From Candidatus Omnitrophota bacterium (GTDB taxonomy: Bacteria > Omnitrophota > Gorgyraeia > Tantalellales > Tantalellaceae): a DNA stretch of 56,744 bases. Positions 14,682 to 56,744 of this stretch are shown here, piece after piece. Positions within the stretch are counted from its first letter, which is position 1, and every line of letters starts with the position of its first letter. The stretch covers positions 1 to 56,744 of the forward strand of contig JBDRKO010000009.1 in NCBI GenBank assembly GCA_043813915.1. The letters are read 5' to 3'. The notes under the pieces are model-generated. The model made no database searches. It was not told the origin of the DNA and was given only the letters and a program-made list of their open reading frames with translations. The position numbers and the translations under genes are program-made.

Positions 14682-14810
14682 GAAGATACTACCCTTTTAA
14701 AAATAGCGCATGGTTACGCGCGATAAGAGCCATTCTCGCCGCGCGGTTGAGCTATACGATTTATGGAGTCAGAGGCGCCGAGAAATGTGTTATGTGTGAT
14801 GGGTGATGGG

Positions 14811-15024
14811 AGAACCAACTTTCGCATACCCAGGATATGGGGACATCCTCCGAACCCCCGTGTTTTGTTTTGCGGATGCAAAACAACGGGGGAAGGGAAG
14901 TGTCCCGTTTACGAGGGAAGCAGTCTAAAAGTCGAAGGTGGAAGTTCTGGGGACACTCTTCCCGTGGGAGTATAAACCCTGGTCGAAGAATGTCCCCAGA
15001 ATATATTTTTATTTCTGTTCACGC
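14811..15024 (+). repeat. Module B, full copy (two GGGACA...TGTCCC hairpins)
   Basis: Near-identical inverted copy at 52041-52255. Confidence 0.9.
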
Positions 15025-15078
15025 TATACTCTATACGCTATACGATATGCAAATTAACACCATGCTCTATGCTGAATT

Positions 15079-16794
15079 TTATTTTTTCTTCGCTTTGATC
15101 TCTCCGACTATATACTCAAGAAATTCATCCCTGGCAACAAGCACGGATTCTTTCGCCGCGCGATCCTTGATCTCTATTTTACCCTGATCCATACTTTTCT
15201 TGCCTATTATGATCTGAAAAGGAAAACCGATAAGATCGGCGTCCTTGAACTTGATCCCGGCGGACCTTTCCCTGTCATCTATTATTACGTCTATTCCCGC
15301 TCTCTGCATTTCTTCATAAACACGTTCGGCTTCGCTATTAAGCTCTTCATTTTCTTTTTTGAGCGGGATCACTACGGCCTCACACGGGCTTATCGACAAA
15401 GGCCATATGATCCCGTCCTTGTCATAGCTCGATTCTATAAGTGACGCCAATATTCTGTTAACCCCGATCCCGTAACAACCCATCACGGCAAAGCGTTCCT
15501 TCCCCTCTTTATCCAGGAATTTTGCCTGCAGCGGTTCCGAATATTTTGTTCCGAGCTTGAATGTATGCCCGATCTCTATTGCCTGTTCTATAGCGACCGT
15601 CTTCCCGCATTTAGGACAAGGGTCGCTTTCCGTTATACCCCTGGCGTCTATCCACCCGTCGACATCAAAATCCCTTCCCGGGCAGACATTGATCAGGTGT
15701 TTATCTTTCTTGTTCGCTCCCGTTACGGCGTTCCGGAGGGCAAACAGGCCGTTATCCGCGAATTTCTTTATCCCAAGACCGACCGGGCCCGAGAACCCTG
15801 CCGGAGCGCCCGTGAAGTTCTCTATCGTTCTTTCATCCGCCAGTTCAAGGGTTTTGCATCCGATATGTTTTTTTATTTTGGTCTCATTGGCTTCATGATC
15901 TCCCCTCACAAGAACAGCCATGGGTTCTTGATCGGAAAGGTATATCAATGTCTTGATAATGCCCGAGCCCTCCGTCTTGAGAAATCCGCTTACATCCTTA
16001 ACGCTGCTTATCCCGGGCGTATCCACTTCCTTCATTTCGGGATATTTATTCTCATCAGCACTGTTTTCCTTCAGCGCTTTCACCTCGGCGACTTCGGTGC
16101 TTGCGGCATACCCGCACGAACCGCATACCGCTATCCTATCCTCTCCTATCTCGGCGGGGATCATGAATTCGTGGGACACACTGCCGCCCATAAGCCCGGG
16201 ATCCGCTTCAACCGGAATAAAAGGCAGTCCGCATCTCTCGAAAATACGGCAATACGCGTCATACATGGCCTTGTAGCTTTTCTCCATAGAACCCGCGTCC
16301 TCGTCAAAACTATAGGCATCCTTCATTATGAATTCACAGCTGCGTACCGTCCCGAACCTGGGCCGCACTTCATCCCTGAATTTGGTCTGTATCTGGTATA
16401 GCGTGATAGGAAGGTCCTTATACGAACGTATTTCGCCTGAAACCAGGCTTGTTATTATCTCTTCATGTGTCGGCCCCAAAGCCACTTCCTTTCCGTGCCG
16501 ATCGGTATACTTGATCATCACTTCACCCATATCATCATACCTTCCCGTACGCTTCCACAGCTCGACAGGCTGAAGCGCGGGCATCAGGAGCTCTATGGCT
16601 CCCGCTTTGCCCATTTCCTCGCGTATGATATTCTCCGTTTTGCGCAGCGCTCTGTACCCCATAGGCAGATATGTATACGCTCCCGCGGAAAGCCTGCGTA
16701 TAAGACCCGCCCTCATCATAAGCCTATGGCTTACGGCTTCCGCTTCCTGCGGATCCTCTTTTAAAGTAGGTATGAATGATCTTGACCACCTCAT
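15079..16794 (-). CDS. proS: Proline--tRNA ligase
   Basis: MRWSRSFIPTLKE, LGPTHEE, FRDEVRPRFG, editing insertion, MGCYGIG. Confidence 0.97.
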   Translation of the reverse strand: MRWSRSFIPTLKEDPQEAEAVSHRLMMRAGLIRRLSAGAYTYLPMGYRALRKTENIIREEMGKAGAIELLMPALQPVELWKRTGRYDDMGEVMIKYTDRHGKEVALGPTHEEIITSLVSGEIRSYKDLPITLYQIQTKFRDEVRPRFGTVRSCEFIMKDAYSFDEDAGSMEKSYKAMYDAYCRIFERCGLPFIPVEADPGLMGGSVSHEFMIPAEIGEDRIAVCGSCGYAASTEVAEVKALKENSADENKYPEMKEVDTPGISSVKDVSGFLKTEGSGIIKTLIYLSDQEPMAVLVRGDHEANETKIKKHIGCKTLELADERTIENFTGAPAGFSGPVGLGIKKFADNGLFALRNAVTGANKKDKHLINVCPGRDFDVDGWIDARGITESDPCPKCGKTVAIEQAIEIGHTFKLGTKYSEPLQAKFLDKEGKERFAVMGCYGIGVNRILASLIESSYDKDGIIWPLSISPCEAVVIPLKKENEELNSEAERVYEEMQRAGIDVIIDDRERSAGIKFKDADLIGFPFQIIIGKKSMDQGKIEIKDRAAKESVLVARDEFLEYIVGEIKAKKK

Positions 16795-16800
16795 ATTATC

Positions 16801-16866
16801 TCCTTAATTTTCATGGAATGAAAATTAACCTTGAAGATGCGACGAACAGGAGCATCTGAAAGGTCT
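16801..16866 (+). repeat. Module C, single diverged unit
   Basis: TCCTTAATTTTCATGGAATGAAAATTAACC...AGATGC...GCATCTGAAAGGTC; homologous to the 58-bp array at 39431. Confidence 0.85.
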
Positions 16867-16912
16867 TCTTCATATCATTTTTCTTATTCACTTTTCGTGA
16901 AACGAAAATTAA

Positions 16913-16949
16913 CCCCCCGCGCTTAGATTTCGAAGAAATCTGCGGGGGG
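16913..16949 (+). repeat. Module D hairpin, copy 1
   Basis: CCCCGC.CTTAGATTTCGAAGAAATCTGCGGGG; second copy at 31983-32016. Confidence 0.75.
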
Positions 16950-16959
16950 CGCCTCTCTC

Positions 16960-17165
16960 CTCAGTCCGCTTTAGCGGACTGCATGCCACAATCTTCCGAG
17001 CTCTTCCCCGCCTTCACCCGTAGATTCAGAGTTACGTAAATAACTTTGTCACCCGAAGGGGCGGGTGTTCACGGCGAGTTCCACAGTCCGAAGGACGAGG
17101 ACTGTCTGAGTCCGGAACACTTGCCCCTTCGGGTGACAGTTTAATAGATTACAAGACACTATGAC
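16960..17165 (+). repeat. Module A copy 1 (~205 bp structured repeat)
   Basis: CTCAGTCCGCTTTAGCGGACTG...GTCACCCGAAGGGGC...GCCCCTTCGGGTGAC...ACAAGACACTATGAC; five co-oriented copies in the window. Confidence 0.95.
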
Positions 17166-17183
17166 TTCTGTTTTCTCTTATCC

Positions 17184-18289: not shown

Positions 18290-18528
18290 TTATCTACCCT
18301 GGTTAACGCTGCCAGGTAAATGATCTGGTTTTATGCTAACCTGGCAGCTTCTAACCAGGTTAGCATTTTTACTTTTATTTCTCCCATTACACATCACACA
18401 TAACACATTACACGGCGCTTCGTCCCTCGTCCTTCGTCTTTCTTCCTTCGCCCTTCGTTCATATTTGACTCTCGTACACTCTGACACTTTGACACTTTTT
18501 CTCGCTTCTGACTTCTACTCTCTACCTT
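18290..18528. repeat. Intergenic mosaic: CTAACCTGG/CCAGGTTAG hairpin pair plus heptamer tracts (CACATAA, CGTCCTT, CTGACTT types)
   Basis: Two related inverted units at 18294-18363, then CCCATTACACATCACACATAACAC...GGCGC, also seen at ~14775-14810 (inverted), ~37960 and ~39895. Confidence 0.65.
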
Positions 18529-20771: not shown

Positions 20772-20796
20772 ATTTTTCGTGTACCGTGCCCCTATT

Positions 20797-20842
20797 CCGT
20801 GTCTCGTGTCTCGTGTCTCGTGTCCCGCGTCCCGAATCCCGT
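20797..20842 (+). repeat. Heptamer tract (CTCGTGT)n
   Basis: CGTGTCTCGTGTCTCGTGTCTCGTGTCCCGCGTCCCG between cdsA and dxr. Confidence 0.75.
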
Positions 20843-20846
20843 GCTC

Positions 20847-23297: not shown

Positions 23298-23326
23298 ACT
23301 ATAACACCAACTTAATATCAAGTCAA
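23298..23326 (-). promoter_or_regulatory. Sigma70-like promoter whose -35 box overlaps the end of module H
   Basis: TTGACT-17 nt-TATAGT. Confidence 0.6.
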
Positions 23327-23433
23327 TTCACATATACCCCGGCCTGAAGGCCGGGGTTTGTCTACAATTGATCCTGAGCCCCGCCTTTTTTCCCGCGCTG
23401 AAGCAAGGGGCCCAGGCGGGGTGAATGGGTCAA
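23322..23433 (+). repeat. Module H copy 2
   Basis: GTCAATTCAC...CCCCGGCCTGAAGGCCGGGG...CAATTGATCCTGAGCCCCG...CCCGCGCTGAAGCAAGGGG...GAATGGGTCAA. Confidence 0.7.
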
Positions 23434-23454
23434 GAAACGCTCCGAAAGAGCGTA

Positions 23455-25213
<1,759 letters not shown>

Positions 25214-31974: not shown

Positions 31975-31982
31975 CTCTTTTG

Positions 31983-32016
31983 CCCCGTGTTTAGATTTCG
32001 AAGAGATCTGCGGGGG
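31983..32016 (+). repeat. Module D hairpin, copy 2
   Basis: CCCCGTGTTTAGATTTCGAAGAGATCTGCGGGGG. Confidence 0.7.
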
Positions 32017-32050
32017 ACCTAGAGACCGAATTCGTGACTCGTGACCCGTG

Positions 32051-32101
32051 ATTCCAAAACATCACATTGTAGGGGCACGGCATGCCGTGCCCCTACGTCT
32101 A
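32051..32101. repeat. Module E: GTAG-type REP palindrome with ATTCCAAAACATCACATT leader
   Basis: GTAGGGGCACGGCATGCCGTGCCCCTAC (32069-32096); other copies at 35494, 46211, 46257 and 49882. Confidence 0.9.
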
Positions 32102-32309
32102 TCTATTTTCGGGCGGTTCACGAACCGCAACCGTCAAAACGGGGACGTTTTGCCCACCTCGGACATTACGTCACTTCGGCCGGGAGGCCTCAGCACTTCC
32201 TCGGACATTACGTCCTCGGTGCCTCGGCGCCTCGCTTGGCTCGGATTCGCTCTGGATAAATTCGACCAGACAACTTGCGTTCACTTCGTTCCGCAAGTTG
32301 TGGTCTCAT

Positions 32310-33032
32310 TTACATAGAAAACCTCTCCCCCAGATATATCTCTCTTGCTTTAGGATCGTTTATAAGAGTTTCTTTCCCTCCGGAGATCAGGACCTGCCCT
32401 TCGAACATGATATAGGCCCTATCCGTTATAGTAAGCGTCTCTCTTACGTTATGGTCCGTCAGCAGTATACCTAAACCGAGTTCTTTGAGCTCCCGTATCA
32501 CTTCTTGGCAATCGTATACGGCTATAGGATCTATCCCGCTGAACGGTTCGTCCAGAAGTATGAACATCGGGTTTGTTACCAATGTCCTGGTTATCTCCAG
32601 CCTTCGTCTTTCTCCTCCGGATAGAGTATACGCTTTATTCTTTCTTAAATGTGATATCTTCAGCTGGTTAAGGAGATTATCAAGCTGCCGGTCCCTTTCC
32701 TTTCTCGGGAACCCAAGAGTTTCCATTATCGCCATGATGTTTTCCTCAACGGTAAGTTCCCGGAATATTGACGGTTCTTGGGAAAGATATCCTATCCCCG
32801 CACGGGCCCTTTGATGGATCGGAAGGGTCGTGATGTCCTTTTTATCGAAAATAACATGTCCGGAATCCGGCCGTATGATACCCGTAACCATGTAGAACGT
32901 GGTGGTCTTTCCGGCACCGTTGGGTCCAAGAAGCCCGACAACTTCCCCTCTCCTGACGTTGATGCTGACCCCTTTGACCACATCCCTTCCTCCGTATCTT
33001 TTAACAAGGTCCCGAGTCTCAAGTAAATGCAT
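32310..33032 (-). CDS. lptB: LPS export ABC transporter ATP-binding protein
   Basis: GLLGPNGAGKTT, LSGGERRRLEI, LLDEPFSGIDP, LTDHNVRETL, YLGERF. Confidence 0.97.
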   Translation of the reverse strand: MHLLETRDLVKRYGGRDVVKGVSINVRRGEVVGLLGPNGAGKTTTFYMVTGIIRPDSGHVIFDKKDITTLPIHQRARAGIGYLSQEPSIFRELTVEENIMAIMETLGFPRKERDRQLDNLLNQLKISHLRKNKAYTLSGGERRRLEITRTLVTNPMFILLDEPFSGIDPIAVYDCQEVIRELKELGLGILLTDHNVRETLTITDRAYIMFEGQVLISGGKETLINDPKAREIYLGERFSM

Positions 33033-33065
33033 CTCAGCTCTTCTCCTTTTTGTCTCAAAGCGGAA

Positions 33066-33935
33066 TTATGACCCTTTAGAATTTTCCAGTTGTTCTATTT
33101 CCTGAGGATCTATTATGATCCTGGGACGGCCCAAAAGTTTGGCGCTTTTTGTGCTCTCCGTATATATGGCTGTATCGCTTATGGTGTAACTTAGCCCTTT
33201 CTTTGTCTTCACATTACCCTCGGCGATAACCCTTTTGAACTTTTCCGTTTCCGGGTCGAATTCAACGGTAAGAGTATCCGAAAAAAGTTTTCCGTCCTTA
33301 TCTTCTACTTTAACATTGTTCTTGAACACGGCGACATGCCCGTTATAATCTATTTCCAGCGGACCGTCACAAGTGACCTTTGTATCCGGCTTCATCCTAA
33401 CGATCACATCTTTTTCCAGAACGGCATACATTCTGTCAGAGTTCGCCATCCCGCCCTTTCCCAAGGCGATAAGTCCGTCACGGCTTATATGAACCGCTGC
33501 ATCAGTAGATATCTCTTTTGTGTTCTGCGACCACTTAGCCTTTTCTGTGGTGAGAGTGAGACCGTCATCCGAATCCACTTTGACGTTCCCCATCAGTTCT
33601 ACTTCACCCCTTTCTCTGTTGAATATGCCCTTATCAGAGGTTAATATGACCACGGTACTGTCCCCATAGGCTACAGCTCCGAGATCGTTGAGATGTATGT
33701 CATCCCCGACTATTTCAGCGGATTTACCTTCTAAATGCCATTGTCTGGCGCCTTTCGGACTGCGCCCGTCGATAGAAAAAGTAAGCACCCGCTGTTCCAG
33801 ATCAGAAGACTCGTCCGTCTTTTCGGGAACACCTGCTCCCGGCGTCATTCCTTCTTTCTCTTTCACAACACTCCGTATGAACATGATCACAAGTACGAAC
33901 AGAAGCACACATATTACCGAGATCTTTTTCCACAT
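33066..33935 (-). CDS. LptC/LptA-like double beta-jellyroll protein
   Basis: N-terminal TM, two OstA-like segments (ELMGNVKV; AEGNVK...LLGRPRI), directly upstream of lptB. Confidence 0.75.
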   Translation of the reverse strand: MWKKISVICVLLFVLVIMFIRSVVKEKEGMTPGAGVPEKTDESSDLEQRVLTFSIDGRSPKGARQWHLEGKSAEIVGDDIHLNDLGAVAYGDSTVVILTSDKGIFNRERGEVELMGNVKVDSDDGLTLTTEKAKWSQNTKEISTDAAVHISRDGLIALGKGGMANSDRMYAVLEKDVIVRMKPDTKVTCDGPLEIDYNGHVAVFKNNVKVEDKDGKLFSDTLTVEFDPETEKFKRVIAEGNVKTKKGLSYTISDTAIYTESTKSAKLLGRPRIIIDPQEIEQLENSKGS

Positions 33936-33939
33936 ATTT

Positions 33940-34845
33940 TTATTCCCCGACGCTTTGCGGACAGGTCTTCCACCGGCGATGCATCCAGACCCACTGATCC
34001 GGGTATTTTTTTACATATTTTTCAAGTATTGCCGTCCATTCCTGGGTGTATCGTTCTATATCGCTATTTTTATCATCTCTCGGCACTAAAGATATGGCCT
34101 TTTCTATGATGAGTTTGTACGTATCGTCCTTTTTCCTCAACATGAACGCCGGGACAAGGTTCGCCCCCGTGACCATACCTATTTTGACGGGCGCTACCGG
34201 TGTACTGGCAGGTTTACCGAAAAAATCCACAAATATGCTCTCTACGCTGTCGACATCCTGATCCGCCAATATCCCGAGCATTCCGCCGCTTTTAAGTATC
34301 CTAAGAAGTTTCTTTGGTGACTCGTCGCGGTATACCACTTTGGCTCCGAATCTTTTTCTTAAACGGTTTATCAGTTTGTCGTATTTAGGGAAATATATCC
34401 GTTTAGCTATGATCGCTCCGGTATATCCGTGAGAATACAGATACGCCGATAAAAGCTCCCAGTTCCCGAAATGCGAGGCGAGCAGTATTACTCCCTTGCC
34501 TTCACTTATCGCTCTGTCAAGATTATCAATGCCCTCTATCTCCGTTACCAGCCGCCCGATATCCTCTTTGCTGTAAGACAGGAACTTTATCCAATCCGCG
34601 CCGTTCTTGGCGACATTTCTGAAAACATCTTCCGCTATTCTGAGGCATTCTTTGTCATCGCACCCGAACCCATCTTTCAGATTTGAGACCGCTATCTCCC
34701 GATGCTTTTTCAGCAGTTTAAAAGCGCCCCTTCCGAGATGATCGGACAAAAAGACGCTTATCCTTCTGGGAATGAACCCTATTATACAGAACAATATCTT
34801 CGCGGCATAATACAGATAATATCGTCTTGTTCTTATTTTAGCCAT
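33940..34845 (-). CDS. Lipid A late acyltransferase (LpxL/HtrB family)
   Basis: HFGNWEL, GILADQD, DQWVWMHRRWK. Start at MAKIRT; the ORF-track extension lies in repeat DNA. Confidence 0.9.
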   Translation of the reverse strand: MAKIRTRRYYLYYAAKILFCIIGFIPRRISVFLSDHLGRGAFKLLKKHREIAVSNLKDGFGCDDKECLRIAEDVFRNVAKNGADWIKFLSYSKEDIGRLVTEIEGIDNLDRAISEGKGVILLASHFGNWELLSAYLYSHGYTGAIIAKRIYFPKYDKLINRLRKRFGAKVVYRDESPKKLLRILKSGGMLGILADQDVDSVESIFVDFFGKPASTPVAPVKIGMVTGANLVPAFMLRKKDDTYKLIIEKAISLVPRDDKNSDIERYTQEWTAILEKYVKKYPDQWVWMHRRWKTCPQSVGE

Positions 34846-34852
34846 GATTTTA

Positions 34853-35561: not shown

Positions 35562-35575
35562 CTCTGTCTTCTCTA

Positions 35576-36494: not shown

Positions 36495-36507
36495 AATAGA
36501 GTTCATC

Positions 36508-36706: not shown

Positions 36707-36728
36707 TGAGTCGTAATTCGCACCGCTC

Positions 36729-36783: not shown

Positions 36784-36955
36784 TCTCTACCCTCTCTCCT
36801 CTCGCTTCTATCTTCCCTGTACCCTGAACCCTGTACCCCGTTGTTCCTTCGTTCCACGTCCCACGTCCTTCTTCCATCGTCTCTCTGTCCTCTGACTTCT
36901 GTCTTCTCTTATACCTATGCTCTGTGCGCTGTGCTCTATGCCATTATCACCGCAC

Positions 36956-37630: not shown

Positions 37631-37692
37631 AGAGTTTGTGCTCGCATAGAGCATAGCAGTTAAGTCGTATATCGTATAGCGAATGTCGTATA

Positions 37693-37774
37693 GCGTGATC
37701 AAAAATAAAAATATATTCTGGGGACATTTTGAGGGGCAGGTTTACACTTCCCCGGGAAAAGTGTCCACAGAACT
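37693..37774 (-). repeat. Module B half copy
   Basis: GCGTGATCAAAAATAAAAATATATTCTGGGGACAT...GTGTCCACAGAACT. Confidence 0.88.
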
Positions 37775-37826
37775 AATGCATTAAACAGCCTAAACAGACC
37801 ATTGGCCATCGTCTATTGTCCTTTAT

Positions 37827-37941
37827 AAGAGTCATAGAGTCATCTTTCGCTACGCTCACTAGAGTCAGCATTATTTACACATCAGTCTAACCTGACTCTT
37901 TGACCCTAGCGAACAACGTGAGCGATGACTCTTTGACTCTT
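37827..37941. repeat. Module K: ~115-bp element with AGAGTCA-type terminal inverted repeats
   Basis: AAGAGTCATAGAGTCATC...GATGACTCTTTGACTCTT, with an inner AGAGTCAG/CTGACTCT pair. Confidence 0.7.
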
Positions 37942-38059
37942 TTTCTAGCATCTAGCTTCTCCCATCGCACATAACACTTAACACGGCGCCTCTCTCTTCT
38001 ATCTCCCCGGGGCCACCTTTAAACACAAAAATGCGCTGAGGACGAAATGTCCGAAGTGC

Positions 38060-38082
38060 GTCGAAACCTCCGTGTTTCGACG
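38060..38082. repeat. Module I palindrome
   Basis: GTCGAAACCTCCGTGTTTCGAC; inverted copy at 39924-39945. Confidence 0.75.
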
Positions 38083-38199
38083 GTAGAAATAGCTAAATTC
38101 GCGAACGGTACAAAATATACTCGTCCCACATCCCACGTCTCACGTCCTTCGTCCCTCTCTCTTCTCGCATCTCGCTTCTAGCCTCTAGCTTCTTCCCTC

Positions 38200-38423
38200 C
38201 TCAGTCCGCTTTAGCGGACTGCATGCCACAATCTTCCGAGCTCTTCCCCGCCATCCCCCATAGATTCAGCGTTACTTTGTCACCCGAAGGGGCGGGTGTT
38301 CACGGCGAGTTCCGCACAACCGCCTCTTTGCTTCGCAAAGCGAAGCAGCGGGGGGAGGACTGTCTGAGTCCGGAACACTTGCCCCTTCGGGTGATAGTTC
38401 AATAGGTCACAAGACGCTATGAC
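38200..38423 (+). repeat. Module A copy 3 (long inner arm, AGTTA hairpin deleted)
   Basis: Inner arm is CAACCGCCTCTTTGCTTCGCAAAGCGAAGCAGCGGGGG. Confidence 0.95.
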
Positions 38424-38463
38424 CTCTGTCTTCTCTTGTGCCCTATGCCCTTATTATTCTTCT

Positions 38464-39415: not shown

Positions 39416-39430
39416 ATATCAGCTCCTTAA

Positions 39431-39662
39431 TTTTCATGGAATGAAAATTAACCCTGAAGACGCAACGAATAGGCGCGTCTGAAGGGTCTTTTCGTGGAAT
39501 GAAAATTAACCCTGAAGACGCAACGAATAGGCGCGTCTGAAGGGTCTTTTCGTGAAATGAAAATTAACCCTGAAGACGCAACGAATAGGCGCGTCTGAAG
39601 GGTCTTTTCGTGAAACGAAAATTAACCCTGAAGGCGCAACGAATAGGCGCGTCTGAAGGGTC
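39431..39662 (+). repeat. Module C tandem array, 4 x 58 bp
   Basis: Units start at 39431, 39489, 39547 and 39605; near-identical; no spacers. Confidence 0.95.
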
Positions 39663-39665
39663 TTT

Positions 39666-39875
39666 TCGTATATCGTATAGAGTATAGCGCTTCTAATAGC
39701 ACAGCGCATAGAGCACAGCATTGAACAGTACTTCTTTAAAGTAACCAGTTGCCTGTTACCTGTAACCAGCGACTTGCGTTTTCTGGTAACTGGTGACCGG
39801 TTTCTGGTAACTTTCATATTCAGACGACCGCAAGGGCTTATACCCCCGCGGGAAGAGTGTCCTCAGAACTTCCAC
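39666..39875 (+). repeat. Tract G, module F copy 3, and a module B fragment
   Basis: F at 39721-39815; AGGGCTTATACCCCCGCGGGAAGAGTGTCCTCAGAACTTCCAC at ~39833-39875. Confidence 0.85.
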
Positions 39876-40000
39876 ATTCGTCTTCCTTCCCTTCACACCT
39901 CACACATAACACTGATCTCGTCGGTCGAAACACGGAGGTTTCGACACACCTCGAACATTACGTTCTCGGCGCCTCTGTCTTCTGACTTCTGTCTTCTCTC

Positions 40001-40206
40001 CTCAGTCCGCTTTAGCGGACTGCATGCCACAATCTTCCGAGCTCTTCCCCGCCTTCACCCGTAGGTGCAGAGTTACGTAAATAACTTTGTCACCCGAAGA
40101 GGCGGGTGTTCACGGCGAGTTCCGCAGTCCGAAGGACGAGGACTGTCTGAGTCCGGAACACTTGCCGCTTCGGGTGACAGTTCAATAGATTACAAGACAC
40201 TATGAC
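40001..40206 (+). repeat. Module A copy 4
   Basis: Colinear with copy 1; flanked on both sides by CTGTCTT/CTGACTT heptamers. Confidence 0.95.
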
Positions 40207-40236
40207 TTCTGCCTTCTGACCTCTGTCTTCTGTCTC

Positions 40237-41196
40237 TCAGACCAACCCTGCTTTAAGAATATCCTGCACATCAAGCACCCCTACGGGCCTGCCTTCGTCG
40301 TCCACTACCGGGATCTCATCAATATGCCTGGTCGATAATACCTTGAAGGCTTCGGCCGCAAGCCTCTCCCCTTTTATAGTAACAGGTGACTTTGTCATAA
40401 CATCCCCTACTTTGCGATGCAGAAGGTCTTTACCCTCCTCAAAGTGACGCCTTAGGTCCCCGTCCGTAAAAATACCTACGAGTTTGCCGTCAGCCCCTAT
40501 AACACTTGCCGATCCCGTACGCAGCCGCGTGATCTCCAGCAGAACATCTTTGACCGATGTTTCCTGATCTACTATGGCCGTCCCTGCTTTGGGGCGCATT
40601 ATATCCTCCACCCTCAGCAATAATCTTTTACCGAGAGACCCTCCGGGATGATATAAAGCAAAATCTTTTGGTTTTATGTTCTTTCTTTCCAAGAGACAAA
40701 CGGCAATAGCGTCCCCGATGGCAAGCATTGCCGTGGTAGATGTCGTCGGCGCGAGCCCCATCGGACAGGCTTCTTTTTCGACGGAACTGTCTATAGAAAA
40801 ATCGCTGTTAACGGCCAGGGTCGATTTGAGATTACCTGTGACCGATATAAGTTTTGCCCCGATCTTCTTTATGATCGGGAGAAGCCGTATCACCTCTTCC
40901 GTCTCTCCGCTGTTAGAGAACGCTATTATGATGTCCTCATTGGTCACTCTGCCGAGATCTCCATGAAGAGCTTCGGCGGGATGCAGATACAAGGACGGGG
41001 TCCCCGTTGACGACATGGTTGCGGAAACTTTCTGGGCGATAAACCCGGGTTTTCCCATCCCGGTCACGATAACCCTTCCTTTGTTCTCCGCCAAAGCTTC
41101 TATTATCAGAACGAACTTGTCGTCTATTCTGCCTACAAGCTCGGCTATAGCCTTACTTTCATTCTCCAGAACTTTTTTAGCTAAGGATATGCTCAT
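40237..41196 (-). CDS. kdsD: Arabinose 5-phosphate isomerase (SIS plus CBS)
   Basis: GMGKPGFIA, HPAEALHGDLG, SNSGET, EACPMGLAPTTS, HPGGSLG. Confidence 0.95.
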   Translation of the reverse strand: MSISLAKKVLENESKAIAELVGRIDDKFVLIIEALAENKGRVIVTGMGKPGFIAQKVSATMSSTGTPSLYLHPAEALHGDLGRVTNEDIIIAFSNSGETEEVIRLLPIIKKIGAKLISVTGNLKSTLAVNSDFSIDSSVEKEACPMGLAPTTSTTAMLAIGDAIAVCLLERKNIKPKDFALYHPGGSLGKRLLLRVEDIMRPKAGTAIVDQETSVKDVLLEITRLRTGSASVIGADGKLVGIFTDGDLRRHFEEGKDLLHRKVGDVMTKSPVTIKGERLAAEAFKVLSTRHIDEIPVVDDEGRPVGVLDVQDILKAGLV

Positions 41197-45310: not shown

Positions 45311-45316
45311 GGTTTA

Positions 45317-45695
45317 GTATAGCGTTTCTAATAGCATAGCGCATGGAGCATAGAGTTTGTGGAGTTTGTTGGGTTGTATTGACTGAACCTCTATTTGTAA
45401 CCCGACTGTAGTAACCAGTTGCCTGTTACCCGTAACCAGTGATTTGCTTTTTCTGGTAACTGGTCCCCACTTTACTCAACGAATCGCATAGCGCTTGCCT
45501 GCCGGCAGGCAAGCATAGAGCATGGCGCATGGCTTTATATTCGTATATCGTATAGAGTATAGCGAATGTCGTATAGCGTGAACAGAAATAAAAATATATT
45601 CTGGGGACATCTTGAGGGGCAGGTTTACACTCCTCCGAGAAAGGTGTCCACAGAACTTCTGACTTCTCGCTTCTCTCATCCCTATGCTCTATGCC
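45317..45695. repeat. Intergenic mosaic: tract G, partial F (45411-45483), GCTTGCCTGCCGGCAGGCAAGC palindrome, half B (45576-45659), inverted tract G
   Basis: Direct matches to the other module copies. Confidence 0.88.
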
Positions 45696-45698
45696 ATT

Positions 45699-46210: not shown

Positions 46211-46280
46211 GGGGCACGGCATGCCGTGCCCGATATTCCAAAACATCACATTTCATGGGCACGGCATGCCGTGCCCCTAC
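46211..46280. repeat. Module E REP doublet
   Basis: Two GGGCACGGCATGCCGTGCCC palindromes separated by the ATTCCAAAACATCACATT linker. Confidence 0.88.
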
Positions 46281-48276: not shown

Positions 48277-48376
48277 AATGATTTGTGAACAGTGTTCTGC
48301 TCCGCCCTTAAACAACAGGGCTCGCTGGTAGGGCTTCGCAGGAACAAGCATAGAGCACAGCGTTTTATTCGTATAT

Positions 48377-48466
48377 CGTGATCAGAAATAAAAATATATT
48401 CTGGGGACATTCTTCGACCAGGGTTTATACTCCCACGGGAAGAGTGTCCTCAGAACTTTCGCCTTC
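48377..48466 (-). repeat. Module B half copy overlapping the 3' end of the GT4 gene
   Basis: Near-identical to the reverse complement of 14932-15023. Confidence 0.9.
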
Positions 48467-49561
48467 TACCACTTCTCTGTACACTTTAATAGTCTTGTCT
48501 ACACTCTTGTCAAGAGAAAATCCGGCTATGGCCTTTTCTCTCGCCTTTCGTCCCATACTCTCCCTCATCCCCGGGTCTTCTATGAACCTCATTATCCCGG
48601 AAGCCAGCCGAACGGCGTCTACGGGAGGGACCAGAAAACCGTCTTTGCCGTCGATAATGAGTTCCGAAAGTCCGGGAACATCACTGGCTATACAGGCTTT
48701 TCCGCCGGCCATAGCTTCCATCAGGGACAGGCCGAGTCCTTCCGATATCGAAGGCAGACAGAATATGTCCATTAAAGACAGATACCCGGTCAAGGTCAAT
48801 TCTCCGACGCCCATTATCACTTTACCGGAAAGTCCGCTTTCCGAGATCTGCCGCCGGAGCGTCTTCTCTTCTTTTCCTTCCCCGACCAAGAGAAGACAGC
48901 TTTGCGGATATTTTTCTATAACGCGCGCGAACGCGTCTATTAGATACTTGTATCCTTTTACGGAAGAAAGTCTTCCGACGGAACCTATTATGACCGCGTT
49001 CTCATCTATTCCCATCTTCCTCATAAAATCGAGGTCCTTATCGTTTCTCCGGGACAGATATTTTTCGACTTCTATGCCGTTATATATCATTTCCACACGG
49101 CTTTCTTCTATACCGAAATCGTCCATAAGGTGTTCTTTCACACCGTTGCTTATCGCTATTATTTTAGCTCCCCAGCAAGGGAATAAACGTCTGAAAACCT
49201 TTTTATACCGGAAAAAACCGTGACAGGTCGACACGAAAGGTGTTTTTGTAAGCCATGACGCGGCGCAGGCTATGATCTGAGCGACCCTAGTCTGAGCATG
49301 GACAAGCTGAAAACCGTTCTTTTTTATTTCCCGGATAAGAACGGGTATGGCCAAAGCCGCTTTCGGACCGAATTCCGATTTGGTCCTTATATCTATTTTT
49401 ATATGACGGATGCCGTTTGCAGCCAGGTCTTTTTCCATCTGACCGCCGGATGAGGCTACGCTGACATCTACACCTTTTCTTTTTAAATATCCGGCAAGAT
49501 TCACCGTATAGACCGCTACTCCGCCGATATCCAAATGTGTGGTCAATAAGAGTATTTTCAT
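48425..49561 (-). CDS. GT4 glycosyltransferase
   Basis: VGRLSSVKG, EGLGLSLMEAMA. Confidence 0.92.
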   Translation of the reverse strand: MKILLLTTHLDIGGVAVYTVNLAGYLKRKGVDVSVASSGGQMEKDLAANGIRHIKIDIRTKSEFGPKAALAIPVLIREIKKNGFQLVHAQTRVAQIIACAASWLTKTPFVSTCHGFFRYKKVFRRLFPCWGAKIIAISNGVKEHLMDDFGIEESRVEMIYNGIEVEKYLSRRNDKDLDFMRKMGIDENAVIIGSVGRLSSVKGYKYLIDAFARVIEKYPQSCLLLVGEGKEEKTLRRQISESGLSGKVIMGVGELTLTGYLSLMDIFCLPSISEGLGLSLMEAMAGGKACIASDVPGLSELIIDGKDGFLVPPVDAVRLASGIMRFIEDPGMRESMGRKAREKAIAGFSLDKSVDKTIKVYREVVEGESSEDTLPVGV

Positions 49562-49635
49562 AATGATCCGTGAACGGTTTAAAGAAGTCAGACGCCAGAT
49601 ATTAGTGAGAGCTCCTCTGTCCTCTGTCTTCCCTA

Positions 49636-49848
49636 CTCAGCCCGCTTTAGCGGACTGCGTGCCACAATCTTCCGAGCTCTTCCCCGCCATCCCCCGTAGA
49701 TGCAGAGTTACGTAAATAATTTTGTTACCCGAAGGGGCGGGTGTTCACGGCGAGTTCCGCACAACCGCCTCTTTGCTTCGCAAAGCGAAGCAGCGGGGGG
49801 AGGACTGTCTGAGTCCGGAACACTTGCCACTTCGGGTGACAGTTTAAT
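49636..49848 (+). repeat. Module A copy 5 (long inner arm, 3' end truncated)
   Basis: Colinear with copy 3; followed directly by module E (49860-49910). Confidence 0.93.
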
Positions 49849-49907
49849 ATATCACACGTATTCCAAAACGTCACATTGCATGGGCACGGCATGCCGTGCC
49901 CCTACGT

Positions 49908-52028
49908 CTATTCTCCAGGTTCTCCTGCATCTCCCCCGGCCCCTATTCCCATAACTTCCATTAACGCATCAAAGACCTCTTTGGGTTTTACGGACTGCAT
50001 GCATCTTTTCTTGTTCGCGCATACCGACTTGTAACACGGTGAACATTTTAGTTTCTTTCTTATTATCCTATGTTTCCCGCATGGCCCCAGATGTCTAGCG
50101 GGGTCAGTAGGCCCGAAGATGGCCACGAACGGTGTCCCTACACTTGACGCTATGTGCATAGGCGCGCTGTCGCCGGTTAAAAGCGCGTCACATTTCTTTA
50201 TCAAACCTATGAGCTCGGAAATACCCGTCGTTCCTACGGCATTTATGGGTTTTGCTTTTGTTCTTTTCAGGAACTCTTCAGCGCATGTTTTATCCTCCGC
50301 CGTACCGAGAACAACTGTCCGTATCCCGTGCTTCTCGGCTAACAGGTCCGCCAGTTCGGCGGCATAAGATATATCCCAATTCTTAGTTTCCCATTTTCTC
50401 GAGGCCGAAAGGCTTAATGCTACGAGCTTATGGTCTTTTTTGAACCAGTTCCTTTCCAGCATTTCTTGCGCCCACGGTTCACCTCTTCCCGACCATAATT
50501 CGAGACGGTTATCCACCTTGGTTATACCTAAAAGACCGAGCACACATGCTTGATGTTCCACCGGACCCATCGCCGCGCGTGGCAGGCTTATTTTGCGGTT
50601 AAGAAGAAAACTTAATTTACCGTTGTCATACCCATACCGTTCGGTCACCCTGCTCAGAAAAGCCAGTAGATGGCTTTTTCTGTTGTTCTGCAGGTCGATC
50701 GAGATATCAAAATCCTCGGACCTTAATCTGTTGGTAAGTTCCAGAAAACCTCTTCCTTTATCCCTGCCGTTAAGATCGCACGTTATGACCTCGTCTATGT
50801 AAGGACATTTGTCCAGGATCTCCCTGAATTTCACATTCACAAGGACTTTTATCTGGGAAGACGGGAACCTTTCCCTCACGGCTCTCAGTGACGGTACGCT
50901 GAGTATTACGTCCCCGAGCGAACTTATCTTAATGATGAGTATCTTTTTCATATTAAGGACTTCCGAGTAAACTTCCAGCGTCCTACCCATGGTAGACCCG
51001 AGAGAATAATGTTCCTCAACGTATTTCCTCGCGGCCAGAGCTACCCTCTCACACATCTCGGGGTTTTCCATGAACCTGATGATCTTTTCGGCCATATCGG
51101 ACGGATTCATGGGTTCACAAAAAAGACCTGTCTCGGTGTCCTTTATGTTCTCTACCACTCCTCCTATTCTCGTGGCCACGACCGGAACGCCTCTGGCCTG
51201 CGCTTCTATTATGGATCTCCCGAAGGCTTCCTGTTCCCTGTTAGCGGATACCAGGACATTCATTTCTTTGAGTATATCCGGTACTTTTTTGTCGCTCCCC
51301 ACGAACCTGATGAACTTATTCAGCATCAACCGCCGTATGGTGAACTCTATCTTGCTTATATATTCCTCTTTGGCCGACTCTTTATCCCCCATAAGGATCA
51401 CACTTATGTTCTGTTTCTTTCTGCAGACATAAGAAGCGGCTTTCAGGAAATCCAGATGCCCTTTAAGCGGGGTGAACCTGCATATCATGCCTATAGTGAA
51501 CGGTTTTCTTTCGCGCTCGGACGGCGGGATAAAAGAGAACTTCTGAAGATCTACCCCGCGGGGTATTATCCTCATCTTTTGCATGGGTATCCCGAAAATG
51601 TCTTTCATGTATCTTGCCATTGTTTCATTGGCTACTATCACTATCTTGCCCCACCCTATTACGCGGCTTATAAGATGTTTTTTGTATTGCCCGTGCGCCG
51701 TAGTGATAAAGACACGTTTGGTGGATCTCGCCGCGAAATACCCGGAAAGCGCGGGTATCCTGCTCCTCGCGTGCACGATATTGATGTTCTCTTTTTTTAT
51801 TATTTCTTTCAGATTGAAATAGCAGAATATCATCACGAAGGGGTTTTTCCTGCCTATAGGCAGTTTATAATGTCTGGCCCCGATAGCGGCAAGGTTCTGC
51901 TCCAACGCTCCGCCGGAGGAGACAACAACAGCTTTGTGGCCGTTAAGTGTCAGATGCCGGGCAACTTCTACAGTGCCTCTTTCTACACCGCCGACGTTCA
52001 ATTTGGGTATCAATTGTAATATATTCAT
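49908..52028 (-). CDS. GT4-GT9 fusion glycosyltransferase
   Basis: N-terminal half GGVERGT...EAFGRSIIEAQA; C-terminal half SSLGDVILS...GDSAPMHIA...IFGPT. Start at MNILQ. Confidence 0.9.
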   Translation of the reverse strand: MNILQLIPKLNVGGVERGTVEVARHLTLNGHKAVVVSSGGALEQNLAAIGARHYKLPIGRKNPFVMIFCYFNLKEIIKKENINIVHARSRIPALSGYFAARSTKRVFITTAHGQYKKHLISRVIGWGKIVIVANETMARYMKDIFGIPMQKMRIIPRGVDLQKFSFIPPSERERKPFTIGMICRFTPLKGHLDFLKAASYVCRKKQNISVILMGDKESAKEEYISKIEFTIRRLMLNKFIRFVGSDKKVPDILKEMNVLVSANREQEAFGRSIIEAQARGVPVVATRIGGVVENIKDTETGLFCEPMNPSDMAEKIIRFMENPEMCERVALAARKYVEEHYSLGSTMGRTLEVYSEVLNMKKILIIKISSLGDVILSVPSLRAVRERFPSSQIKVLVNVKFREILDKCPYIDEVITCDLNGRDKGRGFLELTNRLRSEDFDISIDLQNNRKSHLLAFLSRVTERYGYDNGKLSFLLNRKISLPRAAMGPVEHQACVLGLLGITKVDNRLELWSGRGEPWAQEMLERNWFKKDHKLVALSLSASRKWETKNWDISYAAELADLLAEKHGIRTVVLGTAEDKTCAEEFLKRTKAKPINAVGTTGISELIGLIKKCDALLTGDSAPMHIASSVGTPFVAIFGPTDPARHLGPCGKHRIIRKKLKCSPCYKSVCANKKRCMQSVKPKEVFDALMEVMGIGAGGDAGEPGE

Positions 52029-52040
52029 GGTTTTAGCATA

Positions 52041-52255
52041 GCGTGAACAGAAATAAAAATATATTCTGGGGACATTCTTCGTCCAGGGCTTATTCTCCCA
52101 CGGGAAGAGTGTCCTCAGAACTTCCACCCTCAACTTTTAGACTGCTTCCCTCGCAAACGGGACACTTCCCTCCCCCCGTTGTTTTGCATTCGCAAAACAA
52201 AACACGGGGGTTTGGGAGGATGTCCCCATATCCTAGGCATGCGAACGTTGGTTCT
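52041..52255 (-). repeat. Module B full copy (inverted relative to 14811-15024)
   Basis: End-to-end alignable reverse complement. Confidence 0.9.
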
Positions 52256-52279
52256 TCCTATTACCCATGCCTTCACTAC

Positions 52280-55217: not shown

Positions 55218-55244
55218 TCATTAGAGATATTCCGGGTCGAGAAC

Positions 55245-56513
55245 TCATAAATACCCGGTTACGAGGTCCATCGTCCTTTCGGCCGCGCCCTGGTTATCCA
55301 AAACAGCCTCCCTGGCATTTTCGGACATATCTTTTCTTTTATCTTCGTTGTTCAAAAGATCATTAACCGCATTTTCAAGTTCTTTCGCGTTTCTGACCCT
55401 GACAGCCGCTCCCTTTTCCAGAAAGATACGGCTCACTTCTTTAAAATTATACATATGGGGCCCGAAAATTATCGCTTTACCCCATACCGCCGGTTCTATG
55501 GGGTTCTGGCCGCCACGTTTCGCTATACTTCCTCCCACAAAAATTATGTCGCCTAGGGCATACAGGTCCTTTAAGTGACCGATCGTATCCACTATAAGCA
55601 CATCACACCCGGGCCCGGCCGTTTCCCCTCTATTGAGTATATCCGAAAGATACCTGTATGTGAGACCTTGTTCCCGTATATACCCGGACACTTTCTTTTT
55701 TCTTCCGATATGCCTTGGGGCCAATATAAGTTTTACGTTCTCCTTCTTTTTTTTCAATTTCGCGTATATACCCAGAACTATCTTCTCTTCCGGATGATGT
55801 GTGCTCCCGGCTATTACAACAGTGTCCCCTTTATCAATGAACACCCGGTCTCTGGAAATGGATAGGCTCCCTATGCCCTGGACCTTCTCTTCGAATTTCA
55901 TGTTCCCTGACACAAAAACATTCTGACGAAGAGCCCCAAGCATTCCGATCCTTGAAGCATCCGACGGCGTCTGCATAGAAAAGCGGTCCACCTTTGACAA
56001 TATCCTCTTCACGATAGGTCCTATCATACGGTAATTTCTGAACGAAGCGTCAGATAGCCTTCCGTTAACCATGACCACCGGGATCTTACGCGCGCTTAGC
56101 TCTTCCAGCATATTCGGCCAGAGCTCGGTCTCCACCATTATATATAACCTAGGGTTTATGAACCGAACGACCTTTCTCACCACGAAACTGATATCCATGG
56201 GATAATAGAACACCATATCCGCCGAGTCCGCTCCCGTACCTCGGACTATACTGTTTCCCGTGGGCGTTGTGGTAGAGATCACGATGGGAATGTCCCTGCG
56301 GATGTTCTTTATACGCCTTGCCAGTTTGACGGCGACAATAGCCTCTCCGACGCTGACAGCGTGTATCCAAACCGGCCTTTCGGACGTCTCCGTCCGTTTG
56401 GGCAGAAAGCCCATCTTCTGGAAAAATCCCCTGTGCCATTTTCCTTTTAAAAGGAGATACGGCACATAAGCCAGACTAAAAATAATAAAAAAAATGTCGT
56501 ATAATAGTTTCAT
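55245..56513 (-). CDS. waaA: Kdo transferase
   Basis: WIHAVSVGE, ETELWPN, AGSTH, LAPRH, GGQNPIEPA. Confidence 0.96.
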   Translation of the reverse strand: MKLLYDIFFIIFSLAYVPYLLLKGKWHRGFFQKMGFLPKRTETSERPVWIHAVSVGEAIVAVKLARRIKNIRRDIPIVISTTTPTGNSIVRGTGADSADMVFYYPMDISFVVRKVVRFINPRLYIMVETELWPNMLEELSARKIPVVMVNGRLSDASFRNYRMIGPIVKRILSKVDRFSMQTPSDASRIGMLGALRQNVFVSGNMKFEEKVQGIGSLSISRDRVFIDKGDTVVIAGSTHHPEEKIVLGIYAKLKKKKENVKLILAPRHIGRKKKVSGYIREQGLTYRYLSDILNRGETAGPGCDVLIVDTIGHLKDLYALGDIIFVGGSIAKRGGQNPIEPAVWGKAIIFGPHMYNFKEVSRIFLEKGAAVRVRNAKELENAVNDLLNNEDKRKDMSENAREAVLDNQGAAERTMDLVTGYL

Positions 56514-56592
56514 GATTGCCTATCGCATAGCGCATGGCATAGCAGTTTAAAAAGTTAAAAGGTTTTAAAAGTTAAAAAGTCCATATAATTCG

Positions 56593-56744
56593 CCGTGAAC
56601 CGAAAGAGATGATATGTTAAAGTGTCAGGTTTTCCAGTAAGGTATACTTCCTTTGTTGGAAGCATACCAAAACAAGGAGGAAAACATGACCATATCTACT
56701 CTACAATTGAACAAAGTCGATACCTCTGTTGGTATCGATGTTGA
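56593..56744 (+). mobile_element. Probable left end of an IS110-family element with the transposase N-terminus (CDS from 56686, truncated)
   Basis: AAGGAGG SD, then ATG 56686 MTISTLQLNKVDTSVGIDV(D/E); GID matches the first DEDD motif. A hairpin GGTATACTTCC/GGAAGCATACC precedes the SD. This is the only plausible + strand gene start, and only 19 full codons are visible. Confidence 0.6.

Follow-up and report, generated by a model that had tools for sequence, protein, structure and literature searches.

Mosaics of small non-coding repeats at the core-operon junctions of a groundwater Omnitrophota bacterium

Repetitive extragenic palindromes (REPs), heptamer tandem repeats and intervening-sequence (IVS) elements have been known in bacteria for decades, and their spread and function are mostly unexplained. 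In bacterial interspersed mosaic elements (BIMEs), REP classes are combined with linkers; the BOX elements of Streptococcus pneumoniae are modular, folded intergenic repeats that are transcribed with the neighbouring genes; some genomes, such as that of Microcystis aeruginosa, are rich in miniature inverted-repeat transposable elements (MITEs); and the short tandemly repeated repetitive (STRR) sequences of cyanobacteria are heptamer repeats comparable to those described below. The present work deals with contig C9, a stretch of 56.7 kb (hereafter the window) of a 65-contig metagenome-assembled genome (MAG), G000 (1.595 Mb, 94.9% complete), which comes from a small groundwater bacterium of the phylum Omnitrophota and in which junctions between housekeeping genes are filled by mosaics of short non-coding repeats.

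The IVS of Coxiella burnetii, with its S23p gene, carries GACAGAT repeats in variable number in a 28-bp terminal stem, and this stem is cut and excised by RNase III (Warrier et al. 2016, PMC4990558). The TAACTGA heptamers of Beggiatoaceae, Cyanobacteria and Bacteroidetes occur in 2 to at least 6 copies, almost all of them intergenic and oriented with the downstream gene, often inside operons and close to start codons, and Microcystis heptamers are mentioned in the same paper (MacGregor 2015, PMC4679880). Among tagged palindromes, a GTAG-tagged REP superfamily and CGTC-tagged REPs have been described (Di Nocera et al. 2013, PMC3733652), and a work that deals with the NIME, dRS3 and NTS repeats of Neisseria describes CGTCATTCCCGCG...GCGGGAATC hairpins together with Ssn proteins, which are GIY-YIG single-strand nucleases (Chenal et al. 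2025, PMC11893778). In the Ssn system, a single-domain GIY-YIG gene of about 94 aa is flanked by its hairpin repeat.

How do the repeats of G000 compare? As in the Coxiella IVS (PMC4990558), four-helix-bundle genes are enclosed by a long hairpin whose arms bear heptamers; unlike it, the cassettes here stand between protein-coding operon genes and not in rRNA, and the window copies are mostly gene-less arms or single tracts. The tracts share with the TAACTGA repeats their tandem 7-nt units, their intergenic position and their strand polarity, whereas the one dominant word of the genome described there is replaced by at least 57 canonical words, and many structured modules stand among the tracts; that paper contains neither '23S' nor 'four helix', hence no link to IVS-type genes (PMC4679880). 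As expected of a REP (PMC3733652), hairpin E of the window is a palindrome with an unpaired tag and of high copy number that lies mostly just downstream of genes between co-oriented open reading frames (ORFs); it is combined with other motifs in mosaics, like the REPs of BIMEs, and genes resembling REP-associated tyrosine transposases (RAYTs) are present, one of them flanked by its own palindrome family. E itself, however, flanks no RAYT-like gene and bears a tag on both sides, and instead of a few REP classes with linkers, dozens of unrelated families make up the mosaics, in a 1.6-Mb Omnitrophota host. With BOX elements and MITEs the modules have in common that they are intergenic, folded and built of sub-units in variable number and order; in contrast with BOX- or MITE-rich genomes, G000 has far more families per Mb, in which no terminal inverted repeats with target duplications were seen, and has them inside the core operons of a streamlined genome.

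In our judgement, the junction mosaics are probably a layered accumulation of several independent families of small non-coding repeats, exceptional in number and variety in this lineage. An earlier reading of the window from its letters alone (the sequence-only reading) had proposed a single kit of cassettes; the parts fall instead into unrelated kinds already described (GTAG-tagged REPs, 7-nt tandem repeats with IVS-type arms, MITE-like modules), and what the junctions contain is an unusually rich pile-up of several known kinds of repeat, selfish or regulatory, not one new system.

Repeat mosaics in the genome and its relatives

Our observations concern the repeats themselves, their copy numbers, orientation and positions, the covariation of their stems and the variable filling of orthologous junctions. 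Throughout, the letters A to L denote repeat modules of the window, and F followed by a number denotes seed families defined genome-wide (F04 is C, F17 is A and F30 is J). In a self-BLAST of the genome, the long spacers of the window are made up of segments each of which recurs elsewhere in the genome, 5 to more than 45 times, while coding DNA has no such copies. From position 14491 on, 37 junctions can be counted, 14 of which carry at least two module labels according to our own family labels; the sequence-only reading had described about 15 gaps as mosaics of the same parts, and both this description and the module strings that it named were recovered. It had called the other junctions mostly short or overlapping, and 22 of the 37 are indeed at most 100 nt long or overlap, with fewer than two labels, the last one being a repeat-free spacer of 118 nt. 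It had also seen no credible protein in the mosaics, in agreement with which none of 12 tested spacer ORFs (60-116 aa) matches Pfam at E <= 0.01. The whole window, searched on both strands, gave no match to an Rfam covariance model at E <= 1, and ARAGORN found no tRNA or tmRNA in it. A literature search on intergenic repeats or MITEs in Omnitrophota, which did not cover supplements, returned only unrelated papers.

At the scale of the genome, 5.8% of the sequence has at least three other copies. Families were built by a greedy seed-and-mask procedure, high-scoring segment pairs longer than 400 nt being excluded, and 76 seeds gave 2089 hits that mask 77.6 kb. With crude gene calls (greedy ORFs of at least 80 aa, those made of more than 40% repeat being dropped), the masked DNA outside ORFs amounts to 70 kb of 221 kb, about one third of all non-ORF DNA. 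Once overlaps had been resolved, which reduced the 2089 hits to 1545, at least two families were present in 255 of 1259 junctions and at least four in 126, and 289 of the 431 spacers of at least 150 nt contained at least one family. The order of the modules is non-random: adjacent modules form 381 pair types as compared with 546 +/- 10 in 1000 label shuffles, and the sum of squares of neighbour pairs is 4552 as compared with 1910 +/- 69. The earlier claim that modules keep preferred neighbours is borne out by this adjacency check, with the proviso that part of the signal is trivial because the procedure split longer composite repeats, the strongest pairs (F07+F12, F17+F27, F21+F43 and F03+F29) being single longer elements. 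Preferences left beyond these include F02-F08 (18 times for 3.4 expected) and F10-F18 (10 times for 2.5), and the variety of module order is still large despite them.

Orientation relative to co-oriented genes is strongly biased, with ratios of 0:45 for F04 (C), 37:2 for F07, 30:2 for F12, 74:10 for F18, 5:33 for F10, 15:1 for F17 (A) and 11:28 for B; palindromic families cannot be assigned an orientation. Positions are biased as well: 80% of 15 chains of C are found no more than 25 nt from the start codon downstream, and of 44 E copies between co-oriented genes 52% are found no more than 25 nt from the stop codon upstream, a position shared by 44-50% of the tracts F18, F14 and F47, which are purine-rich on the sense strand. 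A stem pairing the two ends of a spacer and looping the mosaic out was considered and rejected as a general rule: a local score of at least 14 was reached in 3 of 309 co-oriented spacers of at least 160 nt, the same rate as in the controls (2 of 309 in direct orientation, 16 of 1535 with the ends of other spacers).

The relatives compared are 40 genomes of the same class (41 with G000). G001 and G002 belong to the same genus as G000, with about 71% nucleotide identity in genes, and G003 and G011 were compared at the junctions too. The gene order lptC-lpxL-queF-queE-queC-queD-kdsC-kdsD-kdsA-kdsB-hldE-trx-waaF is kept in G001, G002 and G003, and in G011 up to the contig end (trx), the macro gene after waaF having a match only in G003. 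The junctions themselves, measured between tblastn alignments that begin up to 48 residues inside some genes, are another matter: queC/queD has 761 nt in G000 as opposed to 90, 131, 115 and 5 nt in G001, G002, G003 and G011, respectively, kdsC/kdsD has 821 nt as opposed to 15, 122, 61 and 29 nt, and queF/queE has 308 nt as opposed to 2, 175, 114 and -10 nt, while kdsA/kdsB has -4 nt in G000 and 194 nt in G002. The filling found in the relatives consists of other heptamer words, heptamer-arm hairpins, CGTCATTGCGAG-type hairpins and a GTAG variant. Since gene order is kept and orthologous junctions differ in length and content in the four relatives, the filling is dynamic and not the invariant one that would have spoken against the sequence-only reading. 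Modules of the 821-nt kdsC/kdsD junction recur in 8 of the 40 relatives at E <= 1e-4, and between G000 and G001 modules are better conserved than the adjacent coding DNA.

Heptamer tracts and four-helix-bundle cassettes

The intergenic DNA of G000 has a base identity of 0.312 at lag 7, 0.297 at lag 14 and 0.282 at lag 21, over a baseline of about 0.26; coding DNA has period 3 only, with no lag-7 peak. The genome holds 182 strict period-7 tracts (27 of them mostly within ORFs), for at most 29 strict tracts at each of the other periods from 4 to 12 and none in a shuffled genome. These tracts use 57 canonical words, may be polar with respect to strand (7:0 for AATCACG, 5:0 for AAGGACG) and are represented in the junction mosaics by GCATAGA, CGTATAG, CTGTCTT/CTGACTT, CGTCCTT, CACATAA, CACGAGT and GTAACCA. 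Hairpin F is made of a GTAACCA-type heptamer arm, a spacing of 9 nt and the complementary arm, and its arm words are those of the arms of a four-helix-bundle cassette at C45:2733-3116. Complementary heptamer arms are seen in the window in F and in the GCATAG...CTATGC pairs at 36.5 and 45.3 kb, and many window tracts are single and not paired (F18, 74:10).

Six matches to PF05635 ('23S rRNA intervening-sequence protein') were found in G000, all of them on contigs other than that of the window, and the two proteins of the six that were scanned are four-helix-bundle proteins of TIGR02436. The genes are wedged between operon genes and every visible flank is a heptamer tract (6 of 6); wherever the sequence shows both sides of a gene, the tract after it is complementary to the tract before it, the arms being in this way physically associated with four-helix-bundle genes. 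The words differ from cassette to cassette (four words: CGTGACT, TAGTTCG, CCAGTAA/GTTTCCA and GAAGGAC) and are also found in window tracts or F, and the GAAGGAC cassette occurs in near-identical copies behind different upstream genes (contigs C58 and C45). Contig C45 (4483 nt) starts and ends within near-identical four-helix-bundle genes and C58 starts in another, so the cassette is present at no fewer than three junctions of a sugar-nucleotide locus, where it breaks the assembly.

The association extends to the relatives, PF05635 being present in 31 of the 41 genomes and in 1 of 14 control genomes. Arm complementarity was scored at one best locus per genome, that is at 29 loci, of which 26 were evaluable and 3 had flanks that were too short: the similarity between the upstream flank and the reverse-complemented downstream flank beats all 50 shuffles at 21 of the 26 loci, the direct-orientation control at 1 of 26. 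The idea that arms are better conserved than their surroundings was dropped, the cassette shared with G002 sitting in a region 86-87% identical throughout, with no excess in the arms. Because the same words form inverted arms around PF05635 genes, we read the window tracts as putative arms or remnants of IVS cassettes. No PF05635 gene was found inside the window mosaics, whose spacer ORFs have no Pfam match, and the window copies are thus gene-less. A literature search, supplements not covered, returned no paper tying heptamer repeats to four-helix-bundle genes outside rRNA.

RNase III is the only enzyme known to act on IVS stems. As the processing enzyme of the cassettes it was rejected: the domains PF14622 and PF00636 were not found in G000 by profile search, and a tblastn of the RNase III of three relatives against G000 gave a best E of 4.7. 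PF14622 was found in only 5 of the 41 genomes of the class, among which several reach a completeness of 96-100%, and in lacking a detectable excising RNase III G000 differs from the Coxiella system.

Tagged hairpins, longer modules and the window junctions

E is a 20-bp palindrome with 60 cores genome-wide at up to 2 mismatches, 47 of them exact; GTAG stands directly 5' in 42 of the 60, CTAC directly 3' in 44, and both in 30, and the flanks beyond these tags are unrelated, often consisting of two different heptamer tracts. It fits the GTAG-tagged REP superfamily (PMC3733652). In the window, E cores are located at 32073-32092, 35494-35513, 46212-46231, 46257-46276 and 49882-49901. Three Y1 genes (PF01797) elsewhere in the genome have as their best NCBIfam match the REP-associated tyrosine transposase model (REP_Tyr_transpos), with E of 1e-15 to 1e-19 and 57-71 bits, below the curated cut-off of 80 bits. 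One of these RAYT-like genes (C38:7558-8235) has three copies of the F06 palindrome, on both sides, and this REP family is physically associated with it; the second is followed by a different, CTAC-tailed hairpin. G002 carries in orthologous junctions a variant GTAG hairpin with another centre, and a GTAG...CTAC hairpin at 35538-35561 of the window (GCTGGGG..CCCCAGC stem) is single-copy in G000 and found at several G001 sites with 96-100% identity. The comparison of these sequences suggests that different REP families may have expanded in sister genomes.

Of the longer modules, A has been followed furthest, through an alignment of 26 copies from G000, G001, G002, G003 and G011, five of them in the window (from 54 nhmmer hits, those covering fewer than 88 of the 111 model positions and opposite-strand duplicates were dropped). 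As exemplified by copy 1 (16951-17176), it measures about 225 nt and comprises a terminal hairpin, a linker and a long stem that covaries and surrounds a conserved internal loop, with an apical hairpin that is exchangeable. The outer stem of 23 bp is Watson-Crick in 507 of 598 cells, with at least two pair types at 15 of the 23 pairs; the internal loop (CTCAGACAGTCCTC ... TGCGGAACTCGC on the gene-sense strand) is near-invariant and kept across three genera, and the apical hairpin exists in at least three versions. On the gene-sense strand, the non-Watson-Crick cells comprise 54 A.C and 9 G.T, so that folding would be better on the antisense strand, although A follows the direction of the genes at 15:1; we take this as a lead only, 24 of the 54 A.C coming from two columns shared by the G000 copies. 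The question of the folding strand was abandoned for the other modules, whose wobble counts are not comparable because RNAalifold chose different pairs on each strand, only A being scored on fixed pairs. Covariation was observed elsewhere, at 8 of 19 pairs in C, 10 of 20 in F36 and 6 of 19 in F06. A hairpin of C-run/G-run type is found both in the A apex and within a GATTGC...GCAATGAC frame elsewhere. One A site accepts the insertion of an I-type module in both G000 and G001, and from 0 to 3 CTGTCTT units separate the end of I from the start of A, depending on the copy. Unlike classical MITEs, the A copies examined are not flanked by a target-site duplication.

Which enzymes might move such repeats? 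Three genes of G000 code for small GIY-YIG proteins of a single domain, with cores of 81-85 aa: one (C55:13184-13438) has an H copy directly upstream, a second lies between direct F20 repeats beside a tRNA-like sequence, and the third (C12:89500-90760, locus L105) lies between two similar tRNA-like sequences and may represent an insertion of intron or homing type, within a tRNA gene or next to one. Homologues are present in 38 of the 41 genomes. GIY-YIG proteins were nevertheless rejected as partners of B and H, since the GGGGACA frame of these modules occurs near only 2 of 25 loci (24 in relatives plus the G000 locus), within 260-300 nt; a TCCYGAG motif is weakly enriched, lying within 260 nt of 11 of the 25 loci for a background of 0.18 per 520 nt. 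Four loci of the relatives (L167, L169, L177 and L179) have a ATTCCGCG..CGGAAT-type hairpin directly before the GIY-YIG gene, then GATCCYGAGC, an arrangement that resembles the NTS core of Neisseria. As with the Ssn nucleases (PMC11893778), the small GIY-YIG genes of G000 coexist with hairpin families of CGTCATTGCGAG...GCAATC type (F71, F53 and F15), and the relatives have CGTCATTGCGAG-type hairpins in orthologous junctions; these CGTC-type hairpins are not among the main window modules, and GGGGACA modules adjoin a GIY-YIG gene at one G000 locus only.

None of the three tyrosine recombinases of G000 lies beside a recurring module array, and the modules lack ORFs, two features that distinguish the mosaics from integron arrays. 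TnpB was not found in G000. The only IS110-family gene (C16:116-1501) is found where a contig begins, and about 280 nt downstream of it there is an E hairpin; IS110 elements can insert into REPs, and this arrangement recalls such elements. The sequence-only reading had the mosaics driven by enzymes acting in trans, to be sought among genes flanked by the same modules. This stands in part: candidates exist, PF05635 genes and one RAYT-like gene being flanked by recurring, matching repeats, whereas the tyrosine recombinases and the IS110 gene are without module arrays and no enzyme was found for A, B, I, H or C.

All credible genes of the window are housekeeping genes on the minus strand: carB, proS, ispG, rseP, dxr, cdsA, uppS, purA, serA, clpP, tig and hpf; lptB, lptC, lpxL, queF, queE, queC, queD, kdsC, kdsD, kdsA and kdsB; hldE, trx, several heptosyl- and glycosyltransferase genes, lpxK and waaA. 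An ORF of 154 aa between purA and a gene resembling homocitrate or isopropylmalate synthases (24749-25213, minus strand) is without NCBIfam or Pfam match, and a large ORF of more than 1073 aa (3-3221, minus strand), which runs off the window edge, contains internal 276-nt tandem repeats (families D2 and D3). The 142-nt structured module (F07+F12; 7064-7205, minus strand) ends at the start codon of the gene at 6257-7063 and has a second copy at 23321-23435.

The junctions follow from there. According to depth profile and labels, carB/proS (14767-15073) contains a CACATAA-type tract, H (a GGGGACA...TGTCCC frame with an inner hairpin) and B with a CGTATAG tract, its B and H being in the opposite orientation to all other window copies of these modules. 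The C-D-A string at 16.8 kb, reproduced by independent family labels, is composed of C (16793-16915, minus strand), a 58-nt unit of two hairpins that directly abuts the ribosome-binding site and start codon of proS and is accompanied by part of a second unit, of D (16914-16950), a C-run/G-run hairpin with about 7 copies by depth and a second copy at 31980-32016, and of A copy 1. Hairpin J, a CACATAA tract, a CGTCCTT tract and an 8-nt-periodic GACACT tract fill ispG/rseP (18292-18500), and dxr/cdsA (20786-20846) holds a solo tract of CGTGTCT units, which is one strict period-7 tract. In hpf/lptB (31980-32309), D is accompanied by a CGTGACT tract, E (with its GTAG/CTAC tags), I and F36; in lpxL/queF (34849-35032), CGTATAG and GCATAG tracts precede F (34935-35010). 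The E-A string at 35.5 kb includes A copy 2 (35567-35793), embedded in CTGTCTT/CTGACTT tracts. At queE/queC (36507-36955) one finds a GCATAG tract, F (36552-36625), a further GCATAG tract, a unique hairpin (about 36731-36780), 7-nt tracts rich in pyrimidines (36790-36915) and, at 36916-36945, the CTATGC tract, which is complementary to GCATAG; the queE ORF called from 36632 runs into these repeats, as judged from queE alignments in the relatives, which begin at residue 43-48.

Within queC/queD (37643-38463), GCATAG and CGTATAG tracts, B (37703-37775), K, a CACATAA tract and a reversed I (38033-38082) are joined by L, CGTCCCA/CTCGCTT tracts and A copy 3 (38191-38434, the variant with a long apical hairpin), while kdsC/kdsD (39416-40236) has four C units (39416-39662), tracts, F (39740-39813), a partial B (39833-39870), a CACATAA tract with a nested hairpin I (39924-39975), a CTGTCTT tract, A copy 4 (39992-40217) and a further tract. 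The waaF/macro junction (45311-45698) shows a GCATAG tract, a truncated F (45410-45464), a GCATAG tract split by an 18-nt palindrome (45494-45511), a CGTATAG tract, B (45583-45657), a CTGACTT tract and a CTATGC tract. This palindrome, together with the hairpin inside the CACATAA-type tract at 39.92 kb, agrees with the nesting that had been described. A short junction (48348-48469) consists of a GCATAG/CGTATAT tract and B; A copy 5 (49627-49856, again with the long apical hairpin) is followed by E (49627-49911 in all); and B (52049-52122) precedes H (52134-52262) at 52038-52266.

Origin and meaning of the mosaics

The accumulation that we consider probable may be pictured in layers. Tracts of 7-nt period, alone or as a tract and its complement (a hairpin such as F), would form the first; those of the window would be gene-less arms or remnants of IVS-type cassettes, with a unit number that drifts by slippage. 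The second layer would be the E hairpins, of the REP/RAYT kind, and the third the longer, strand-oriented A, B, I, H, C and 142-nt element, taken as non-autonomous elements or as co-opted structures of RNA or single-stranded DNA. New copies would land in or beside existing repeats because these would be the only harmless sites in a genome that is about 86% coding; a few junctions would grow by such accretion and most would stay short. It is tempting to propose that the four-helix-bundle and RAYT-like proteins act on the repeats in trans, that the tracts serve as preferred landing sites and that the elements, once transcribed, may have roles of their own. Modules embedded in tracts of variable unit number would be circumstantial evidence for site-specific landing pads.

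Are the mosaics debris or grammar? They might be operon punctuation, the modules being kept as cis-acting structures of RNA or single-stranded DNA that, as parts of polycistronic mRNAs, determine where transcripts are processed, how stable their 3' ends are or how translation is initiated (C at the ribosome-binding site), or that block antisense transcription, a possibility to which we accord a minority share of our belief and which is compatible with a mobile origin. The extreme orientation of F04, F07, F12, F18 and F17 relative to the genes, the placement of C near start codons and of E, F18, F14 and F47 near upstream stops (44-52%), stems that covary around constant loops, the internal loop of A kept across three genera and the better conservation of modules than of adjacent coding DNA between G000 and G001 would all suit such functions. 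Yet the same operon has near-empty junctions in the relatives, and the structures are therefore dispensable at any given site; B, H, I and E occur in both orientations; no Rfam model matches at E <= 1; the mismatches of the A stem favour folding of the antisense strand; and G000 yielded no RNase III, which is usually invoked where stems are long.

We regard as improbable a single dedicated system in which one recombinase or integrase family inserts folded cassettes at landing pads, in the manner of an integron without genes. Judged by their hallmark ends (GTAG/CTAC, heptamer arms, GGGGACA frames), the parts correspond to different repeat kinds already known; the candidate enzymes come from three families, each linked to a different set of repeats; neither the three tyrosine recombinases nor the one IS110 gene is flanked by recurring kit modules, except for E 280 nt from the latter; and TnpB was not found. 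These points stand against modules embedded in tracts on both sides, a C-run/G-run hairpin type common to different frames (the A apex and GATTGC...GCAATGAC) and a non-random adjacency, all of which a single system could claim. Far less probable still is a short-read metagenome assembly that stitched repeats of different loci or organisms into false mosaics, even though the MAG is in 65 contigs with many repeat hits at contig ends, and Logan contigs of four DNA runs all break inside repeats, the joints seen in them being jumps between repeat copies. In these runs, from four studies and with no RNA run among those listed, the unique parts of the stretch match with 0 or 1 differing letter in the listed pieces, and boundaries from unique gene to first module are reproduced with 0-1 differing letters by runs of three studies, for instance at 33000-34945 and 35724-36562 (X1), 49208-49671 (X2) and 40153-41082 (X3); moreover, junctions are filled in similar ways in four other assemblies, of related genera, most modules are shorter than a read pair, and copies differ by pairing-preserving point changes, which are not expected from misassembly. 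The internal order of each mosaic is that of the MAG assembly.

A number of results weigh against the layered accumulation. Strand orientation, positional preference and high conservation of modules fit a selected function as well as mobility, and six G001 copies of I are 92-96% identical, to be compared with about 71% for coding DNA. No cognate enzyme for A, B, I or C was found in G000, which is 95% complete, nor one for H, and the same genome yielded no cognate gene for the commonest window tracts (GCATAGA, CGTATAG, CTGTCTT and CACATAA). E flanks none of the three RAYT-like genes, the GGGGACA frame is rare at GIY-YIG loci, and spacer ends are no more complementary than the controls at a score of 14. 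At the flanks of at least 12 oriented A copies we found tracts of variable length and no target-site duplication. On the side of the assemblies, none of the Logan contigs of the four runs bridges a mosaic, and no pair of empty and filled sites at single-base resolution between strains was obtained.

A bolder proposal, which we hold to be rather unlikely, goes further: heptamer arrays would be recognition sites of pentameric four-helix-bundle 'IVS proteins', arm-flanked cassettes would form a distinct mobile or self-maintaining class whose gene-less derivatives vastly outnumber the gene-bearing ones, as REPINs outnumber RAYTs, and the arrays would have become a docking ground for REPs, A, B and I as well as polycistronic punctuation in a mostly RNase III-less lineage. 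If this were true, core operons would carry a self-organising 'intergenic ecosystem' of many families. The layered accumulation has its own significance. Many repeat kinds share the junctions of essential operons within 1.6 Mb, and the junctions of relatives are empty or filled differently, so that the genome offers, in a small space, a natural experiment on the invasion of such elements, on their possible targeting of one another and on whether the host tolerates or uses them. A testable connection of bacterial heptamer repeats with the '23S-IVS' four-helix-bundle proteins, still without a function, is strengthened too, in a lineage that appears to lack RNase III.

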